IMG/VR virus record: IMGVR_UViG_2703719347_000006
Span: 1 to 42,800 of that record
DNA: 42,800 bases
DNA from: a virus
Lineage: Duplodnaviria > Heunggongvirae > Uroviricota > Caudoviricetes
Reading direction: 5' to 3' (one strand)
A model generated the notes under the pieces. The model searched no databases. It worked only from the letters and a program-made list of their open reading frames with translations, and had not been told where the DNA came from. Shown here one piece after another: positions 34,462 to 42,800 of this stretch. Numbering within the stretch: the first letter of the stretch is position 1; each line of letters opens with the position of its first letter. The translations under genes and the position numbers were made by a program.

Positions 34462-35217
34462 ATGGCAGTATCTGACCAGACCCGCAGCGGCGACCTTGCT
34501 GAAACATTCAAATCTGAACGGGAAACAACAAAGAACCAGATCCGAGTCGCCTTGCCTGGCATTATTCAGTCATTCGATCCTGATGCGGTGACGGCGGTTG
34601 TGCAGCCTGCTATCCGTTCGGTTGAAAAGGATAATGACGGCAACCGCATTACCAAAAATTACCCATTGCTGGTGGATGTTCCAGTGATATTCCCACGTGG
34701 CGGAGGATGTACGCTAACGTTTCCGATTAAAGCCGGGGATGAGTGTCTTGTCGTTTTTGCCGATCGTTGTATTGATTTCTGGTGGCAGAGCGGCGGAATA
34801 CAGGAACCGGTTGATGACAGAATGCATGATTTATCGGATGCGTTTTGTATTGTCGGTCCGCAGTCTCAGGCGCAGAAAATCAGCGGAATCAGCACCAGCG
34901 CCGCGCAACTGCGTACTGATGATGGCGCTGCGTTTGTGGAAGTTGCCGCAGGCCATAACATCACGGTTAAAACCCCCGGCGCGCTGACGGCGACAGCAGA
35001 AGGAGGAACCACGATCACATCACCCACCATCACGCTAAACGGCAACGTGACAATAAACGGGAATCTCTCTCAGGGGATGGGCGAAAGCGGCGGCACCGCG
35101 ACGATGCTTGGCCCTGTCACGGTGACTAACGATGTAAAAGCTGGTGGTAAGAGCCTGATGACGCACACGCACGGCGGAGTACAGACCGGCGGCGGTAACA
35201 CAGGAGCGCCTAACTGA
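34462..35217 (+). CDS. Baseplate spike protein (gpV-like)
   Basis: 251-aa ORF; C-terminal Gly-rich repeat region; position before W/J/I-like genes. Confidence 0.5.
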   Translation: MAVSDQTRSGDLAETFKSERETTKNQIRVALPGIIQSFDPDAVTAVVQPAIRSVEKDNDGNRITKNYPLLVDVPVIFPRGGGCTLTFPIKAGDECLVVFADRCIDFWWQSGGIQEPVDDRMHDLSDAFCIVGPQSQAQKISGISTSAAQLRTDDGAAFVEVAAGHNITVKTPGALTATAEGGTTITSPTITLNGNVTINGNLSQGMGESGGTATMLGPVTVTNDVKAGGKSLMTHTHGGVQTGGGNTGAPN

Positions 35218-35570
35218 TGCGATACAGACGCGAAGACGCCGATGGCGATTATACCTTTGGCAGCGGTGATGACACCTGGCTGATTAACTCACCGGAGGCC
35301 GTGGCGCAGGCGGTAAAAACGCGATTCGAATTGTGGTATGGGCAATGGTTTCTCGATACCACCGAAGGGACTCCGTGGATCCAGTCTGTGCTCGGTAAGC
35401 AGAAGCCGGAAACCTACAACCTGGCGATCCGTAAGCGCATCCTCGAAACGCGTGGCGTTAAATCAATCCTCTCTTTCAATACGACGGTGGATACCACGAC
35501 CCGACGTGTCATGTTTTCCGCTGAAATCGACACTCTTTATGGAATAACGACTGTTACATCGGAGGCGTAA
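35217..35570 (+). CDS. Baseplate wedge protein (gpW/gp25-like)
   Basis: 117-aa ORF in the canonical V-W-J-I order. Confidence 0.4.
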   Translation: MRYRREDADGDYTFGSGDDTWLINSPEAVAQAVKTRFELWYGQWFLDTTEGTPWIQSVLGKQKPETYNLAIRKRILETRGVKSILSFNTTVDTTTRRVMFSAEIDTLYGITTVTSEA

Positions 35571-36766
35571 TGGCTCTGAACCTTGATTCTCTTGGTTTAT
35601 CTGCAAAGGTAACCGCAGAGGGGATCAGTGCGCCTGATTATCAGACGATACTCAGCACCCTGATTAGCTATTTTCAGCAGATTTATGGCAGTGATGCCTA
35701 CCTCGAACCGGACAGCAAAGACGGCCAGATGGTCGCTCTGGTGGCTCTGGCCATTCACGATGCCAACAACACGGCCATTTCTGTTTACCGGTCATTTTCT
35801 CCGTCGACGGCGCTGGACGATGCATTAACCAGTAACGTCAAAATTAACGGCATCACTCGCCGTGCTGCGACAAACTCTACGGTCGATGAGCTGATTGAAG
35901 GCGAAGCCGGAACGTTGATCACAAACGGGTCTGTGAAAGATGCCAACGGTATCATCTGGAATCTTCCTGCTCAGGTGACAATTGGTATTGATGGGACGGT
36001 TATTGCTACAGCGACGTGTTCTGTTGCTGGTGCTGTGGCGGCCCCTGCCGGGTCAGTCAATAAGATAAACACCCCGACACGTGGCTGGGTATCAGTAACT
36101 AACCCTCAAGCGGCTACCGTTGGCGTTGCTGCCGAAACAAATGCTGAATTGCGTGTCCGGCAATCACAGAGCGTTGCTTTACCATCTCTGACGCCGTTTG
36201 AGGCGGTAGATGGTGCGATAGCAAATATCAGCGGCGTAACGCGACACAAGCTGTATGAGAACGATACAGATACCACTGATGCAAATGGCCTGCCGCCGCA
36301 CTCAATCGCGGCCATTGTAGAAGGTGGTGATGCGACAGTCATTGCGAACAGCATTCGTGGTGTGAAAGGGCAGGGCGTAACACCCTACGGTAGTACGGTG
36401 ATTGTTGTGCCTGATAAGTACGGAAACCCTCACCCGGTAGGTTTTTCAAGGCCGGTCGATGTACCCATTTACGTCAAAATCACTATCGAGCCCCTTACGG
36501 GTTACACATCCCAGGTCGGCGAAGAGATAAAGGCGGCTGTATCTGCCTACATTAACTCTCTGGCAATCGGCGCCAGCGTTCTTCTCAGTCGCGTTTACTC
36601 ACCGGCTAACCTTGGTGTTGTCAGTGGAGGTAATGCCAGGTATTACGACATTACCGAGTTGCTGATCGGGACGTCTGCCGGTGGCGTAGCCGCGGCAAAC
36701 GTGGATATTGCCTTTGACCAGTCAGCATCCTGCGCCGTCAGCAATATTAATCTGGTGGTCTCATGA
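35570..36766 (+). CDS. Baseplate J-like protein
   Basis: 398-aa ORF between W-like and I-like genes. Confidence 0.5.
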   Translation: MALNLDSLGLSAKVTAEGISAPDYQTILSTLISYFQQIYGSDAYLEPDSKDGQMVALVALAIHDANNTAISVYRSFSPSTALDDALTSNVKINGITRRAATNSTVDELIEGEAGTLITNGSVKDANGIIWNLPAQVTIGIDGTVIATATCSVAGAVAAPAGSVNKINTPTRGWVSVTNPQAATVGVAAETNAELRVRQSQSVALPSLTPFEAVDGAIANISGVTRHKLYENDTDTTDANGLPPHSIAAIVEGGDATVIANSIRGVKGQGVTPYGSTVIVVPDKYGNPHPVGFSRPVDVPIYVKITIEPLTGYTSQVGEEIKAAVSAYINSLAIGASVLLSRVYSPANLGVVSGGNARYYDITELLIGTSAGGVAAANVDIAFDQSASCAVSNINLVVS

Positions 36767-37536
36767 GCAGATACACTGACCGCATAACAAACTACCACGC
36801 CGGTAAACCAAAGTTCTTTGCCCACGTCGACCTGTCCACCAGGCCACTGAGTGATGTTTCCGATGCCATGTCACGGCTAATACCCGATTTTGACATTGAT
36901 ACCGCCGTAGGCGTGCAACTCGACGTTGTGGGCGAATGGGTTGGTCGTTCCCGTCGCGTGGCTACACCGGTAACCGGGATTTATTTTTCGTGGGACACCG
37001 AACGGGTTGGCTGGGACCAGGGGATTTGGCAGGGACCATATGACCCAAACGACGGTTTTATCGATCTAAGCGATGAAATATATCGGCTAATTCTGAAGGT
37101 GAAAGTGGCGATAAACAACTGGGATGGTCAGAACGATTCGCTGCCTTCAATTCTTGATGCCGCCCTTGCCGGGTCCGGGATCCGCATGGCTATTGTCGAC
37201 AACCAGGATATGTCGATTTCTATCTGGATACTCGGTGACCCATCGGTAGCCCTAAGTGAAATAGACCGGTTAATTCTGGATAGCGCCGTCAATAAAGGCC
37301 CCTTTATCGCATTACCGGCAGGTTACGTACCATCGCGCTATGACATTAACCCGATTGACCAGGTTAACAGCGAGCTATGGTGGGCGATTCAAAACGGTTA
37401 TATGACGGTTAAGGCCGCCGGAGTTCGTGTCCGTGAAATAGAGACCGTCAGTGATGGTTATCAGTTTTTTGGCTTCGATATCGAAAATGACTATATCGCT
37501 GGTTTCGACCGCGGGTCATGGGGAGAGAGATTTTAA
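36763..37536 (+). CDS. Baseplate/tail protein I-like
   Basis: 257-aa ORF; its C-terminal two-thirds has a paralog at 41825-42300. Confidence 0.45.
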   Translation: MSRYTDRITNYHAGKPKFFAHVDLSTRPLSDVSDAMSRLIPDFDIDTAVGVQLDVVGEWVGRSRRVATPVTGIYFSWDTERVGWDQGIWQGPYDPNDGFIDLSDEIYRLILKVKVAINNWDGQNDSLPSILDAALAGSGIRMAIVDNQDMSISIWILGDPSVALSEIDRLILDSAVNKGPFIALPAGYVPSRYDINPIDQVNSELWWAIQNGYMTVKAAGVRVREIETVSDGYQFFGFDIENDYIAGFDRGSWGERF

Positions 37537-37673
37537 TGGCGACTAACGATTTTAAGCGCTTCGCTACTGGTAGTGGGGCAAACGTATTATCTCAGGCAGA
37601 CTATGAGTCACTATCTGCCCTGGCATCAGGGAAGGGCGCTAACGGCTATGTCATCATTGAGGAGTACGCATAA
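37536..37673 (+). pseudogene. Truncated tail-fibre N-terminal remnant (45 codons)
   Basis: MATNDFKRFATGSGANVLSQADYESLSALASG aligns with the N-terminus of the fibre ORF starting at 42300, then diverges and stops. Confidence 0.45.
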
Positions 37674-37870
37674 TGGCAGGTAATTACGCAGTCATTGAAA
37701 GTGGAATAGTTAAAAACATCATAATTGCGGAAAGCGGTTATGAATATGATGGTGCTGAACTTATCGAATATCCTGAAAGTGTATTTTGCCAGCCTGGGAT
37801 GTTTTATAACAAGGCAGACGGGCTATTTTACGATGATAAAGAATATTCAAAAATAAATAGCAAGAATTAA
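37673..37870 (+). CDS. Hypothetical protein (65 aa)
   Basis: ATG overlaps stop of the fibre remnant; followed by a terminator. Confidence 0.35.
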   Translation: MAGNYAVIESGIVKNIIIAESGYEYDGAELIEYPESVFCQPGMFYNKADGLFYDDKEYSKINSKN

Positions 37871-37894
37871 GTCACTAAATTACCAGAAAGCAAA

Positions 37895-37916
37895 CTGACC
37901 TTATGGTCGGTTTTTT
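37895..37916 (+). terminator. Rho-independent terminator
   Basis: Stem ctgacc (37895-37900) / ggtcgg (37905-37910), loop ttat, then tttttt. Confidence 0.55.
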
Positions 37917-37928
37917 ATTGGGGCGACT

Positions 37929-39788
37929 ATGAGTGAATACGATACCGGCAATCCTGTGCCGTCTGCATCCATGCCTGATGCATGGGATAATATGCAGTCT
38001 ATTGACAAGTTCGTTAATAGCAGTGATGAAACCATTACCACACGCACAGGCAAACAGTTAGATACTTTGCATGGCGTTAATGTTAAAGCGGACAACCAGC
38101 TAACGCAGCAGCAAGCAGATTTTGAAACATCGCAAGAAGAAAGGGATGCTGTAGTTGAGGAAACCAGGCAAAACCTGATCCCTCTGAGCAAGCAATACAT
38201 GACGCTTGCTGATGCACAGGCAGATATTGCTAATATCCCTGCGGGAAGTGCCACTTATTACCGCAGCCCGGATGATAGCGCGCTGGCTATTGAGGTAATC
38301 AATAACGCCGGGACGTTACAACCTACCGGACGAAAAATGCCATCCATGGACAGCATCATTTCGGCTTTGGGTGTGTACTTCGACGGTAGCAACCCAGACC
38401 TGCTGATTGGCTTTAAAGACGTGGATAACAAAGTTTTCGCGGCATGGGACCTGTCGGGAAAATATATTGGGGATCTGGAGTATGCGTCATTTGATGAGAC
38501 GGGACGGATGATTGCAGATCTGGCAGTGCTGGGTGATATGCAGATAAGCCAGGCGTATCAGAACCCGGATGTAGCTATGTATATCCTCGATGATGATGGG
38601 CTTGTGCTGCTGGAGGTCCCATTCGTCGAGTCGCAGAGCGACGTCAACGAGGAAATAGAGGCAATCAATACCAGGCTGGATGTGTTTGTTCGTGATGACG
38701 GCATTTTAAAGTCGGAGTTTTACGGCCTCAATTTCATGTCGGAGACACGTCGCGCATTGATGATGGCAGAAGCTAAGGAGGGGCAATTTGTCATCAATAT
38801 CATTGGGAACTCGTGGGTAGCTAACGAGTGGAACCTTCCGCGTCGTTTAACTCAGGTCCTGCAAGACCGATTCGGTGATGCAGGCGCCGGATTTGCTGGT
38901 TACAACCGTAACTTTGCCCATCCAGGACGTGCATTTCTAGCGATTCAATCGGGAACGTGGACTGAGGAGACTGTTACGACACCTACAGCCACAAACTTCG
39001 GCCCGGCTGGCTCACAGGGGATCACCTCTACCGCAGGTGCCTCTATGGCATTCCAGTCTCTGACTGGTGATACCTCAGCGGCTATCTACCACAATGGCAG
39101 CTCCAGCGTCAGCCCTGTAATCAAAATCAAGTACAAGGACAATGTCACGGGCGACCAGACTGCTGAAACACAGGTTACCCTTTCTGGTACGGGTGTAGTC
39201 AGAACTGAGTTGCCCGTACCGCCTGTGACAGGAAACTGGACGGCTACGCTGACGCTCGTTTCAGGAACACTGGCGTTCTGTGGCATCGAGCTGAAAAAAA
39301 GTACCCCGGGTGTTCGTGTCAATAAATTAGGTACTGGCGGCTCTACCTGGCGGCAATGGACAACCCTGAACCGTGCCGGGTGGGTGCAGGGCATCACGCC
39401 GCTGGCGGCAAACCTGAATATCCTGCTGGAGTCCGTCAACGGCGCGTACAGCTACGATGCCGACTACGAGGCGACCTATACAACGGAAATGGCATCACGC
39501 GTGAGGTCAGCCTCTGCCTTCAGCGACGTTCTGGTTATCTCGCCACCACAAACACTGGGCACACCAACCTACTCGTTACGCGACTTCGCATACAAGCTGA
39601 GAGGTATCGCTGGCTCTATTCAGGCAGGGCATATCGATCTGCAACAGGTTTTCGGACAAAACATCGCAGAGTATACGGACAATGGGAAGCGCTACATCCT
39701 GTCATCAGATGTAAACCATCCAACATATCCCGCCGGGCAATGCGTTATTACTGAAACTGTACTCCGCGCCATCCTTTCTGCTTTTTAA
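37929..39788 (+). CDS. Tailspike/tail fibre with C-terminal SGNH-hydrolase-like (esterase) domain
   Basis: 619-aa ORF; block-I-like INIIGNSW and block-V-like DVNHPTY (D-x-x-H) near the C-terminus. Confidence 0.5.
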   Translation: MSEYDTGNPVPSASMPDAWDNMQSIDKFVNSSDETITTRTGKQLDTLHGVNVKADNQLTQQQADFETSQEERDAVVEETRQNLIPLSKQYMTLADAQADIANIPAGSATYYRSPDDSALAIEVINNAGTLQPTGRKMPSMDSIISALGVYFDGSNPDLLIGFKDVDNKVFAAWDLSGKYIGDLEYASFDETGRMIADLAVLGDMQISQAYQNPDVAMYILDDDGLVLLEVPFVESQSDVNEEIEAINTRLDVFVRDDGILKSEFYGLNFMSETRRALMMAEAKEGQFVINIIGNSWVANEWNLPRRLTQVLQDRFGDAGAGFAGYNRNFAHPGRAFLAIQSGTWTEETVTTPTATNFGPAGSQGITSTAGASMAFQSLTGDTSAAIYHNGSSSVSPVIKIKYKDNVTGDQTAETQVTLSGTGVVRTELPVPPVTGNWTATLTLVSGTLAFCGIELKKSTPGVRVNKLGTGGSTWRQWTTLNRAGWVQGITPLAANLNILLESVNGAYSYDADYEATYTTEMASRVRSASAFSDVLVISPPQTLGTPTYSLRDFAYKLRGIAGSIQAGHIDLQQVFGQNIAEYTDNGKRYILSSDVNHPTYPAGQCVITETVLRAILSAF

Positions 39789-39797
39789 GGTACTTTT

Positions 39798-40697
39798 ATG
39801 ACAACTATTTTTCAGGCACCAGTTCCAAGCAATAACCCAGCGCTGCAGTATGCGGTGCCAGATAACCTCTTGAAAGGGTACGGGACGAAAGAGGGGACTA
39901 CTGATGGGGTATATCTGTTCCGCCTCGATGACAAACGATCGTTTCCTCTACAGGCCGCGCCGACGAGCAATGCTGAAGGCGCAATCGTGAATCTGGCTGA
40001 TAGTGTTAGCGCGCAGGCATCCCTTGGTGGCGACGTGTCTGCATTCGTGTGGAACGGAACACGTAAATCACTGGCGATGAACAGTAAAAGCGCACCGTGT
40101 TACCTGCAGAGCGCCAGTAACTTTATGGCCCGATTTGATGCCACCACCCACCCGTCGAAACTCCAGTATTTTGCGCTTGGAATGTACGTGCGTATTCCGT
40201 CAGCTGATGATTTTGTCGCGGTCAGTACCAACTACTCAGGTATCTGCGGGACGGCGGAATCCCTGACACCGGCAAACGAGTTTGGCGGAATTGCTTTCAC
40301 TAACGTTAACGGCACAAAGGCGATCAATGCCATTCGCGGGACTGACGGCGGCGCGCTGCGCACAGTAGCTGTCCCGGCGACTAATTTCCTCGGCAAAGTG
40401 TGCCTGGTCGTCGTCTACCGGGACGCCGCAGGGATGCACCTCTATGTCGAGGCAACCGACGGGACAAAGGCTTCTGCGATGACCGCGATTGCGAATGTCC
40501 CTGTTTTGACAACGACCATGACCAGCCGGAGCCTGAAATTCGGCGTTACTGGTTTTTACTCCGGTAGCCTCGTCTATAAACATGAGTTTTTTGGCGGCTG
40601 GTTAATCGACCTGGAAACTATCACCGTTTCTGATATCCCTGCGTTTGCATCTGCCGACCTGGCCAGACAGATCGCCAGAGGGTGGATGACAAGCTAA
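39798..40697 (+). CDS. Hypothetical protein (299 aa) downstream of tailspike
   Basis: ORF 10 nt after the tailspike stop; no motif recognised. Confidence 0.4.
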   Translation: MTTIFQAPVPSNNPALQYAVPDNLLKGYGTKEGTTDGVYLFRLDDKRSFPLQAAPTSNAEGAIVNLADSVSAQASLGGDVSAFVWNGTRKSLAMNSKSAPCYLQSASNFMARFDATTHPSKLQYFALGMYVRIPSADDFVAVSTNYSGICGTAESLTPANEFGGIAFTNVNGTKAINAIRGTDGGALRTVAVPATNFLGKVCLVVVYRDAAGMHLYVEATDGTKASAMTAIANVPVLTTTMTSRSLKFGVTGFYSGSLVYKHEFFGGWLIDLETITVSDIPAFASADLARQIARGWMTS

Positions 40698-40777
40698 AAA
40701 CCATTGTGTGTTAATTTGTTGTCTGCCTGAAATGATTTTATCTGTCAGCCAACTATTGATCTGCCACTCACTTAAAA

Positions 40778-40797
40778 CTACTGTATATAAAAACAGT
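40778..40797. promoter_or_regulatory. LexA (SOS) box
   Basis: TACTGTATATAAAAACAGTA: CTGT-N8-ACAG with AT-rich spacer, 20 nt upstream of the 79-aa ORF. Confidence 0.7.
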
Positions 40798-40816
40798 ATT
40801 TATCGGAGGGCAGATC

Positions 40817-41056
40817 ATGCTTAGGCAGTCAGACATCGCCGCGGCTTTCCGCGAGTCCATTTTGCGCAGTTCCAAGGGGTTCCAGTACCTTCACACCCGC
40901 GACTTCGTTACTGCGCTTCGCCGGCGCGGCATTCATTTTACCGAGGTGGAGGCTAACGCCTGGATCGCTCGCGAGCAGACGTATTTTGTCGATAAGACGC
41001 CTGACCATAGCGAAAACAGGCTGTGGATGATGGCCAACATGGGGAGGGTGATCTAA
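40817..41056 (+). CDS. SOS-regulated hypothetical protein (79 aa)
   Basis: ATG 40817 with GGAGGG RBS just downstream of the LexA box; overlaps the next gene (TAATG). Confidence 0.45.
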   Translation: MLRQSDIAAAFRESILRSSKGFQYLHTRDFVTALRRRGIHFTEVEANAWIAREQTYFVDKTPDHSENRLWMMANMGRVI

Positions 41057-41373
41057 TGGGCTTTCCTTCGCCGGCGTCAGACTACGTTGAGCAGCGTCTG
41101 TCTGTTAACTCGATCTGCAATGTAGGCCCAAACACGCTAGTTTTCGAGCGTTCTGGTGGTTACGTTGTACTGGATATCTCCCTGAAGCCAAAGCAGGGTA
41201 GTCAGGTTCTGATCCAGCACGGCGGCGGGACGGAGCTTGCCACGCTGAGAGGGCGGTCGCTGATAACCGAAGATGGCGAAGCAATTGAAGGTGAGGCCTT
41301 GGATGATGTCACTGTCGCAGGCGTCGTGACGCACATCATTTGTGATGTGCGAAGCGATAGCCTGGCGGTTTAA
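41056..41373 (+). CDS. UmuD'-like protein (HumD-like, lacking the RecA-cleavage N-terminus)
   Basis: Starts MGFPSPASDYVEQR, aligning with UmuD from Gly25; catalytic Ser and Lys of UmuD appear replaced (SGGYV, ATLRGR). Confidence 0.65.
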   Translation: MGFPSPASDYVEQRLSVNSICNVGPNTLVFERSGGYVVLDISLKPKQGSQVLIQHGGGTELATLRGRSLITEDGEAIEGEALDDVTVAGVVTHIICDVRSDSLAV

Positions 41374-41547: not shown

Positions 41548-41820
41548 TTACTGGACTGCACGACCATCGATGTAATCAGCCCACCACTGCATCATCTACC
41601 TGCGCTTATCGAGATACTGAGCATGGTTGTAAATCCCGCGCACAGATCCGCCGTTGGCATGTGCCAGTTGCACTTCAATGGCGTCGGCAGGCCATTCGTG
41701 CTCGTTCATAATCGTGCTGAATTCATGCCTGAATCCGTGACCGCTTTCCAGACCTTCATAGCCGATTTGTTTGATCACAAGCAATACCGCGTTCTCGCAG
41801 ATTGGCTTCTTCTTATCGTT
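41548..41820 (-). pseudogene. Integrase remnant (C-terminal catalytic region only, with in-frame TAG)
   Basis: HGFRHEF...LAHANGGSVRGIYNHAQYLDKRR then TAG (41598-41596), then in-frame MMQWWADYIDGRAVQ to TAA (41550-41548); homology begins abruptly near 41820. Confidence 0.6.
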
Positions 41821-42300
41821 GAGCCAATTAGCGGCGTTTATTTCAGCTGGGACACTGACGGGCTCGGATATGACCAGGGCATCTGGCAAGGGCCATATGA
41901 TCCTGATTCTGGCTATACGACGCTAAGCGATGAGACGTACCGCATCATTCTGAAAGCGAAGATTGCGATTAATAACTGGGACGGGCGGAACGACTCGCTG
42001 CCACCAATTCTGGACGCTGCAACTGCTGGCTCTGGCCTGAAGATGCAGATCGTCGACAACCAGGACATGACGATATCGGTCTGGGTGTTCCCTGAGACTG
42101 ATATTTCTGATGTGTCTCTCGAACTGATCGCCGCTATCAAACAGGGCTATCTCACCGTTAAATCAGCTGGCGTATGGGCCGGTGATGTTGAAACGCCTTC
42201 GGTAGAAACACCGTCAGAAGGCTCTAAATTCTTTGGGTTTGATATGGATAACGAATACATCGGCGGGTTCGATGTTGGAGCATGGGGGACAATACTCTAA
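41623..42300 (+). pseudogene. 5'-truncated paralog of the gpI-like gene, fused to unrelated upstream sequence
   Basis: Residues from about 68 onward (GVYFSWDTDGLGYDQGIWQGPYDP...) parallel 36763-37536; the first ~67 codons are antisense to the integrase remnant. Confidence 0.45.
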
Positions 42301-42800
42301 TGGCAATAAACAACTTTAAACCTTTCGCGCTTGATCCGAACGCTAACGTCACCTCACAAGCTGACTGGGAAGCACTTCCGGCTCTGCTTTCAGGGTTTAC
42401 GGCAGGTAAAGCATCCAGCGCACAGGTCAACAAAGCTATTCGGCAAGCCAGCTTTATCGCGGCAGCGTTGGCGCAGTACACCGCCAACAAAAGCGGGCTG
42501 GATGTGCTTGATGATGGAGACCTGAACGGGTTTATATCCAAAATGGGGACCGCTTTCGGGAAGGATTTCCAGGCCCTTGATGCCACGCTGACGGCATTAG
42601 CTGGGCTGGAAACCGGTGCAAATAAACTCCCGTATTTCACTGGAAATGATACAGCTGCGCAGACTGATTTGACTTCTGTTGGCCGTGACATTATCGGGAA
42701 AAAGACTATTGCTGACATTCTCACATACCTTGGTTTGGGAGAAACGATAAATAAAGCCTCCGGAGCTATGCAGAAATCGGCTAATGGATCTGATATTTCT
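42300..42800 (+). CDS. Tail fibre protein, N-terminal part (runs off the window)
   Basis: Frame open from ATG 42300 to the window end; N-terminus MAINNFKPFALDPNANVTSQADWEALPALLSG. Confidence 0.55.
   Translation, partial: MAINNFKPFALDPNANVTSQADWEALPALLSGFTAGKASSAQVNKAIRQASFIAAALAQYTANKSGLDVLDDGDLNGFISKMGTAFGKDFQALDATLTALAGLETGANKLPYFTGNDTAAQTDLTSVGRDIIGKKTIADILTYLGLGETINKASGAMQKSANGSDIS

Follow-up and report, generated by a model that had tools for sequence, protein, structure and literature searches.

A predicted Ape1-type SGNH esterase tailspike and a jelly-roll partner protein in an Escherichia coli prophage: a candidate two-gene receptor-recognition cassette

Results

The 42,800-nucleotide stretch of DNA analyzed here (IMG/VR record IMGVR_UViG_2703719347_000006, positions 1 to 42,800; hereafter "the window") is an Escherichia coli prophage, 99.8% identical to strain EJN001 across the region; of 5,426 complete E. 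coli genomes, just two carry it at that level. Our subject is a pair of adjacent genes, one for a 619-amino-acid (aa) tailspike and one for a 299-aa protein (the partner), which an original prediction had described as a tailspike with SGNH-like esterase motifs followed by an unassigned open reading frame (ORF). Both ORFs were confirmed on the plus strand, at 37929-39788 and 39798-40697, and the partner starts 9 nucleotides (nt) past the spike stop. The spike ORF falls into three parts, an anchor, a stalk and a head. The features discussed below are as follows:

37929..38344, plus strand: spike residues 1-138, N-terminal anchor or adapter to the tail (PHROG matches, DNA identity with E. coli prophage EC31, shared N-terminus)
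38345..38711, plus strand: spike residues 139-261, stalk or linker (model confidence, independent divergence)
38712..39788, plus strand: spike residues 262-619, predicted Ape1-type SGNH O-acetylesterase head (model, Foldseek, profile, BLASTP)
38886..39323, plus strand: spike residues ~320-465, predicted beta-sandwich resembling carbohydrate-binding modules (CBM35/CBM6-like), inserted between SGNH blocks I and II
38811-38813: codon of head residue S295
39330-39332: codon of head residue G468
39339-39341: codon of head residue G471
39438-39440: codon of head residue N504
39708-39710: codon of head residue D594
39717-39719: codon of head residue H597
39798..40697, plus strand: 299-aa partner, predicted concanavalin-A (ConA)-like/LamG jelly roll of an undescribed family (AlphaFold2 model, Foldseek, synteny)
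38139..40772, plus strand: exchangeable receptor-recognition cassette, distal spike plus partner (DNA comparison)

The spike: esterase head, stalk and anchor

The AlphaFold2 model of the head (predicted local distance difference test score, pLDDT, ~80-90) has an alpha/beta SGNH fold with an all-beta insertion at residues ~321-468 between blocks I and II. In Foldseek comparisons with PDB structures, this predicted model reached probability 1.0 to multiple SGNH esterases. Its top match was the peptidoglycan O-acetylesterase Ape1 (4k3u; E 2.5e-19, target template modeling (TM) score 0.77, 385 columns, ~16% identity), and Campylobacter jejuni 8gkd also matched (E 3.7e-18); CE2 and single-domain SGNH esterases ranked below Ape1, and further matches included CBM6, CBM61 and porphyran-binding modules. 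A profile search against PDB sequences likewise placed 4k3u first (E 4.1e-16), aligning to its blocks I, II, III and V (IGDSHT, GINGA, GTNE and DGVH).

In Ape, experiments have defined the catalytic triad and oxyanion hole (Ser80, Gly236, Asn268, Asp366, His369), and a CBM35-like domain, residues 104-221, is inserted between Ser80 and Gly236 (PMC6174289). After conversion of the aligned blocks with an offset of +18 from the 4k3u chain numbering, G293-N294-S295 of the spike aligns to IGDSHT, G471 to Gly236, N504 to Asn268 and D594-V-N-H597 to DGVH, i.e., Asp366/His369. Spacing is also similar between spike and Ape: 176 versus 156 residues from the Ser to the Gly, 33 versus 32 from the Gly to the Asn, and 90 versus 98 from the Asn to the Asp. 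Residues G293, S295, G468, N504 and H597 are invariant in a 24-sequence alignment and again in an 8-sequence alignment of distant partner-linked relatives, and D594 and G471 reach at least 90% conservation, D594 being Ser in one relative (L006; L numbers denote the compared loci). BLASTP linked the head to proteins bearing the SGNH family PF13472 at 25-28% identity (E ~1e-20), and the head is under strong purifying selection (ratio of nonsynonymous to synonymous substitution rates, dN/dS, 0.03-0.06).

The original prediction rested on the strings GNSW and DVNH, said to lie near the C-terminus. DVNH (594-597) is indeed near the end, whereas GNSW (293-296) lies in the middle of the protein, where it opens a C-terminal domain of ~358 residues. 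As bare strings they carry little weight, a DxxH motif being expected about once by chance in a protein of this size. They are nevertheless real SGNH blocks because they occupy invariant columns in alignments with PF13472-bearing homologues, and they align to the Ape1 catalytic residues. Structure prediction and catalytic-triad mapping, the checks proposed with the original prediction, thus left the esterase idea standing: the SGNH fold is present in the model, as are the Ser, Gly, Asn and His residues and the triad Asp. Assignment of the head to an SGNH fold with an Ape1-type insertion is supported at the level of predicted structure, and the spike is most likely a receptor-modifying O-acetylesterase, as had been proposed, with activity and substrate taken from these models and homologies. 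Peptidoglycan O-acetyl groups are an unlikely substrate for the tailspike of an enterobacterial phage.

The anchor matches PHROGs 3257, 9750, 4201 and 17635 (tail fiber, along with some PHROGs of unknown function) over residues 1-150 or 1-226, and over residues 2-58 the spike profile has a weak match to PDB 9occ ("tail protein gp13", E 4e-5). Other database proteins carry this anchor at 70-98% identity with differing C-terminal heads, among them PF13472 (SGNH), PF13229 (beta-helix), PF03629 (SASA esterase) and PF08757 (CotH); with one anchor bearing so many head types, it is therefore a modular anchor of receptor-binding proteins. The tailspike label of the original prediction holds on the anchor shared with tail-fiber PHROGs and on the position of the gene directly after the baseplate genes, and assignment of the 619-aa protein as a tailspike or receptor-binding protein is supported by anchor homology together with its site at the distal end of the baseplate module. 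Residues 138-261 have pLDDT <50 in the AlphaFold2 monomer model and probably form a trimerization region. This stalk diverges independently of the head, with 66% versus 88-91% identity in L003, L017, L018 and L019.

The partner protein

The 299-aa protein, originally reported to lack a recognizable motif, had no match in Pfam, PHROGs, NCBIfam, PADLOC or PDB sequences, and its sequence shows neither a signal peptide nor a membrane segment. Pfam domains were absent from all 15 aligned family members, LamG and lectin models giving nothing at E<=5, and PHROG matches were marginal only. A word-indexed search of 5.8 billion proteins recovered five relatives, all from Klebsiella or E. coli, and scanning 1.84 billion cluster representatives exhaustively with HMMER yielded 14, of which 10 are full-length (283-312 aa, 27-34% identity). 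No GTDB species representative carries the partner, and a single-protein query of IMG/VR returned only 5 loci.

An AlphaFold2 model built on the family alignment (pLDDT 82.6, predicted TM score 0.86) folds as a jelly roll of two sheets, extended briefly at the N-terminus and ending in a helix at the C-terminus. Foldseek returned 238 PDB and 203 BFVD matches at E<=1e-3, mostly ConA-like folds with TM scores of 0.4-0.59. The PDB matches include the lectin-like Hc-N domain of botulinum neurotoxin (BoNT), the 269-aa tailspike of cyanopodophage Pan3 (9vyh_p), PL7 lyases, legume lectins, a trans-sialidase lectin domain and the carbohydrate-binding module of a phage Dit protein; those in BFVD include a virion structural protein of S-PM2 and many phage proteins annotated as "ConA-like lectin/glucanase" or LamG-like jelly rolls. 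The partner is therefore predicted with confidence, from its modeled structure, to be a ConA-like/LamG jelly roll. Across the family D22, L25, P55, P134, G249, L272 and R290 are invariant, and conservation peaks at residues 16-30, 46-60, 196-210 and 271-299. The partner gene has a dN/dS of 0.07-0.10, indicating purifying selection.

Linkage and exchange of the two genes

In all 13 loci with upstream sequence, the partner homologue starts 2-14 nt after a homologue of the esterase head, the latter detected by BLASTP with E values from 1e-9 to 0. These loci span at least four tail architectures and 40-68% GC; their tail types are window-like (DUF2612/Baseplate_J), lambdoid with TipJ (E. coli p10A), Klebsiella siphovirus-type (L004) and Mu-like (baseplate, L013). 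Partner divergence follows that of the head at ~1:1, with partner/head identities to the window proteins of 98.3/99.7, 90.3/90.5, 88.2/88.0, 34.4/42.7, 31.7/29.2, 30.7/31.6 and 30.2/25.8%. The anchor and stalk behave differently, being 57-69% identical in relatives whose heads are 88-99% identical. The 9-nt gap between spike and partner holds no promoter-like site.

DNA comparison shows where this unit begins and ends. EC31, whose E. coli backbone is 97% identical to the window at the DNA level, aligns up to 38344 and resumes at 40773, and Klebsiella-type relatives (L004, L016, L003, L019) align from 38139 or 38157 to 40685-40792. The left recombination zone, 38139-38344, thus lies inside the conserved end of the anchor, and by both sets of limits the exchange unit comprises the distal spike and the partner. 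Both proteins have their nearest relatives in the Klebsiella pneumoniae complex, at 96% identity for spike residues 88-619 and 96% for the partner; such protein identity between E. coli and Klebsiella prophages points to a recent exchange of the cassette between genera.

Two other E. coli sequences bear on the cassette. In L003 (E. coli p10A, NZ_CP049081, 2032-10470) the same cassette, at ~77%/88% identity (spike/partner), adjoins IS26 and a colanic acid locus gene, wcaM, disrupted by ISKpn26, and stands back to back with a 975-aa SGNH protein and a TipJ tail gene; from these neighbors, the cassette also occurs in a different, lambdoid context. The 199-aa protein P0125 joins an alanine-rich, fiber-like N-terminus to the last 45 residues of the partner at 100% identity. 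P0125 is probably a recombination or deletion scar, and the fusion would therefore make the right end of the cassette a recombination site as well.

Sibling spikes and their downstream genes

Sibling prophages encode seemingly unrelated ORFs of 249-270 aa that begin 2-14 nt past spikes whose heads differ (other SGNH types and, in one case, a beta-propeller):

L002: 5212-6024
L021: 8193-8948
L022: 8414-9217
L024: 5818-6567
L025: 5749-6525

Proteins of 251, 249, 258, 267 and 270 aa were compared with the partner family. The 270-aa protein of EC31 matched the partner profile weakly (hhalign E 1e-5 across only 66 columns), the 267-aa protein of ST540 gave a weak to marginal hmmsearch match, and the remaining ORFs had no significant match to that profile. 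By eye, several end in a LamG-like strand motif. These ORFs and the partner may belong to a single, rapidly evolving superfamily of accessories to spike heads. L025 also encodes a genuine Caudo_TAP protein, beside a gp53-like fiber and not after the spike.

Prophage setting

The upstream tail module includes the following genes:

34462-35217: gpV-like puncturing spike, followed by a gpW-like protein
35570-36766: Baseplate_J, after the gpW-like gene
36763-37536: DUF2612, after Baseplate_J

Downstream of DUF2612 come, in order, ORFs of 45-51, 65, 619 and 299 aa. The first, at 37518-37673 but probably starting at 37536, is what an in-frame deletion has left of a 289-aa glycine-rich tail fiber (PF21722), whose first ~32 and last 13 aa it retains. 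The fiber is whole in the related E. coli prophages CFS3246, ST540 and AZ147; the deletion is shared by EC31, and a further 194 nt are gone from EJN001 (window 37598-37791). This prophage may therefore be short of one of its two receptor-binding proteins. The 65-aa ORF (37673-37870; phrog_18617, of unknown function; WP_016244718; 56-67 aa in relatives) is constantly placed between the glycine-rich fiber and the spike across the prophage lineage, and could encode a small adaptor or assembly factor. Between it and the spike, 16 nt 5' of the spike start, is a terminator-like hairpin (37892-37913; 9-bp stem, then a T-run). A promoter and terminator scan found nothing exceeding shuffled expectation, and the number of terminator-like sites in the region was likewise within it.

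On the 3' side of the 299-aa gene, a perfect LexA box (TACTGTATATAAAAACAGTA, 40779-40798) precedes a two-gene operon (region 40779-41373) encoding a 79-aa protein (phrog_3893) and a UmuD-like protein (phrog_3469; a 116-aa ORF with a GTG start, or 105 aa counting from the annotated ATG). The operon has the look of a moron under SOS control, placed at the end of the prophage and shared with many Klebsiella phages. Remains of an older prophage follow (region 41596-42800): an integrase fragment (41596-41889, minus strand) overlaps a second, N-terminally truncated DUF2612 gene (41623-42300), and in EJN001 the second DUF2612 gene is followed by a gp53-like fiber, Tfa, intS, tRNA-Arg and yfdC. The second DUF2612/integrase region is what is left, at the argW site, of an older prophage of this same type, and the present prophage lies next to it.

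Discussion

On our reading, the element is an E. coli prophage of myovirus type whose tail module is closed by a two-gene receptor-recognition cassette. We consider it reasonably likely that this cassette encodes an esterase spike and a jelly-roll partner acting with its head, a reading in which we infer the esterase activity, its substrate, the physical association of the two proteins and the role of the partner. The spike anchor (aa 1-138) would plug into the baseplate, followed by the stalk (aa 139-261) and a head (aa 262-619) acting as an Ape1-type SGNH serine esterase, with Ser295 as the putative nucleophile, His597 and Asp594 completing the triad, and Gly471 (or Gly468) and Asn504 forming the oxyanion hole. 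During adsorption, the head would strip O-acetyl groups from a surface polysaccharide such as capsule, O-antigen or a similar glycan. The partner would be made in the cytoplasm, expressed late, and work with the esterase head rather than with the tail.

In the reading we prefer, the partner would be a glycan-binding subunit made separately and docked on the spike head. Its N- and C-terminal segments, which are better conserved, would serve as the docking surface and its variable core would bind glycan, so that spike and partner together might form a "bind plus de-acetylate" device. We favor a glycan-binding subunit because the fold is typical of virion receptor-binding modules, because the termini are conserved and the core variable, and because the partner seems to be expressed together with the late tail genes. 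The original prediction had left three options for the 299-aa ORF: a second receptor-binding protein, an assembly factor or cargo. Synteny at 13 of 13 loci and co-divergence with the head argue against unrelated cargo, the other two are both left, and the ConA-like fold is now added to them.

Several observations weigh against this interpretation. For the spike, neither Pfam (PF13472, PF00657) nor NCBIfam reported anything on the 619-aa protein at E<=0.1; this is a failure of sensitivity and no argument against SGNH membership, and homologues at 25-36% identity do bear PF13472. Block I reads GNS instead of GDS and block III VNG instead of GxND, substitutions found in the clade of the spike and in L008, whereas farther partner-linked relatives retain GDS and GTND. 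Activity could be reduced as a result, since the block I Asp of Ape helps to position catalytic residues (PMC6174289); the substituted positions are, for their part, neither nucleophile, base nor oxyanion donors. For the partner, the Foldseek TM scores are moderate (0.4-0.55), and the alignments contain no conserved residue-level set for sugar binding, Ca2+ binding or catalysis. No fusion of esterase and partner was found among 14 representative clusters, or when the partner hidden Markov model was run against all collected spike homologues. A tblastn search of 50,697 phage genomes gave no match to the partner, which is thus missing from these sequenced isolates, and some SGNH spikes (KpV522 gp45, P0064) have no encoded partner. 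Finally, the element may be defective, and may not make fully functional virions, because the neighboring glycine-rich fiber is deleted.

The main rival to a glycan-binding subunit is a dedicated assembly chaperone of the esterase head, a functional counterpart of Tfa of P2, Mu and lambda, which would be required for folding or trimerization, then be released and leave no lectin in the virion. To our knowledge, the ConA-like jelly roll is not among the folds of tail-fiber chaperones; it is common in virion receptor-binding modules, and the partner has no similarity to Caudo_TAP (PF02413) or to other known chaperone families. A chaperone would nonetheless share the position and cassette logic of fiber-tip/Tfa pairs (directly downstream, co-exchanged, co-diverging), and it would fit both the lack of fusions in the 14 representative clusters and the lack of conserved ligand-site residues. 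Expression data cut both ways: 34 of 50 prophage receptor-binding enzymes failed to express alone, yet two SGNH spikes were made active without a partner (PMC13123978). We regard the chaperone as a possible, less favored explanation. A different doubt concerns the head, which could be a weakened or dead, lectin-like "esterase fossil" that recognizes acetylated glycan without de-acetylating it. The GNS and VNG substitutions, their absence from distant relatives and the silence of the Pfam SGNH models would suit such a protein, but the head keeps its Ser, Gly, Asn and His residues and the Asp of the triad, each invariant or nearly so, the changed positions are not those of direct catalysis, and dN/dS is low in the head, making a fossil improbable.

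Two further explanations of the partner fare worse. A ConA-fold glycan lyase or glycanase (PL7- or GH16-like) might cut the polysaccharide once the spike has de-acetylated it, a plausible sequence of events, and PL7 alginate lyases do appear among the Foldseek matches (E ~4e-6 to 2e-5). Non-enzymatic lectin domains fit as well or better, however, and none of the His, Tyr, Gln and Glu residues of the sandwich is invariant across the family (conservation of Y260 and H262 is confined to a 7-sequence subset). We consider an enzyme very unlikely and rejected the PL7-like reading for want of conserved catalytic residues. The location of the 299-aa gene near the prophage end, beside the SOS-regulated UmuD-like operon, could alternatively mark an unrelated moron (cargo for lysogenic conversion or defense) lying next to the spike by accident. 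Such an accident is hard to credit when adjacency to the esterase head holds at 13 of 13 loci, across four tail types and down to ~26-30% identity, when the 299-aa gene follows the spike after 9 nt and has no separate promoter, and when the protein has neither a PADLOC match nor a visible signal peptide or membrane segment; cargo or defense was rejected on the synteny and the PADLOC result, and is the least credible of these readings.

If a glycan-binding partner is the correct reading, a bolder version can be put forward, tentatively: the partner family may be an undescribed and broad set (hosts of 40-68% GC) of detachable lectin subunits on Ape1-type spike heads. Spike and partner could then amount to a two-polypeptide phage "hemagglutinin-esterase", the partner binding glycan while the head edits or destroys the receptor, a proposal that we hold equally loosely. 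If true, the weakly similar 249-270-aa sibling ORFs would point to a general, fast-evolving class of spike-head accessories missed by current catalogs of receptor-binding proteins.

These possibilities have practical consequences, since specificity prediction and expression have both been unreliable for such proteins. If heads of this clade always work with a lectin-fold partner, host-range prediction, recombinant production and phage engineering should treat both genes as a unit, and if the pairing is true, the partner family, invisible to Pfam, PHROGs and NCBIfam, belongs in receptor-binding-protein catalogs. The 96% protein identity of the cassette between E. coli and Klebsiella marks it as a receptor-recognition unit recently exchanged between genera. 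If the partner is only a chaperone, the result is biologically ordinary and provides a practical hint for expressing such spikes.

Comparison with known systems

The closest structural likeness of the head is to Ape1/Ape (Neisseria meningitidis 4K3U/4K7J; C. jejuni 8GKD), in which a CBM35-like sandwich likewise interrupts the SGNH fold between blocks I and II. Ape1 does housekeeping work in the periplasm, on O-acetylated N-acetylmuramic acid, and has GDS in block I, whereas the spike carries its predicted head on an anchor and stalk, has GNS, and probably acts on a surface polysaccharide.

Among phage proteins, the spike is a further example of an established type of SGNH tail esterase. Esterase activity has been shown for two SGNH receptor-binding proteins from Klebsiella prophages, 164_08-KL2 and 174_38-KL55 (PMC13123978), and the Ape1-like tail esterases KPS2894, KPS3995 and KPS7939, resembling 4K7J/8GKD, were described in K. 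pneumoniae prophages (PMC12115436). These proteins, like the spike, place SGNH heads on modular anchors in the same ecological setting; a difference is that the clade of the spike eludes Pfam SGNH models. Term searches of these papers returned no mention of a lectin or LamG partner, and within the literature searched, the fixed pairing of an esterase head with a jelly-roll family appears to be undescribed.

The hemagglutinin-esterases of influenza C virus (HEF) and of coronaviruses and toroviruses (HE) embody a similar principle, a jelly-roll lectin combined with an SGNH O-acetylesterase that binds and destroys a receptor, and OC43 HE is a weak fold match of the spike head (5n11_B, Foldseek E 6e-4). 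This is an analogy only, with no sign of common descent: the HE lectin is inserted within one polypeptide, whereas the spike system would have an inserted sandwich plus a separate partner protein.

Phage G7C provides another parallel. As cited in PMC13123978, its gp63.1 is a virion SGNH esterase that de-acetylates surface polysaccharide at adsorption, and a second receptor-binding protein, gp66, is attached through gp63.1, much as proposed here for spike and partner. In G7C, gp66 joins the N-terminal part of gp63.1, whereas the window partner co-varies with the catalytic head. Since gp63.1 was absent from the 30 profile matches and the best 50 Foldseek matches of the spike head, it belongs to a different SGNH lineage and architecture.

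In P2 H/G, Mu S/U, lambda Stf/Tfa and T2/S16 gp37/gp38, the exchange unit is the distal fiber plus a small downstream gene, whose product is a chaperone or a tip adhesin that co-diverges with the tip. The spike and partner have no sequence relationship to these pairs; the partner has a predicted ConA-like jelly-roll fold, and the gene before it encodes an enzyme head, not a fiber tip. What they share with these tip and Tfa/gp38 cassettes is the pattern of exchange and co-divergence, the partner lying directly downstream of the spike and being exchanged along with it.

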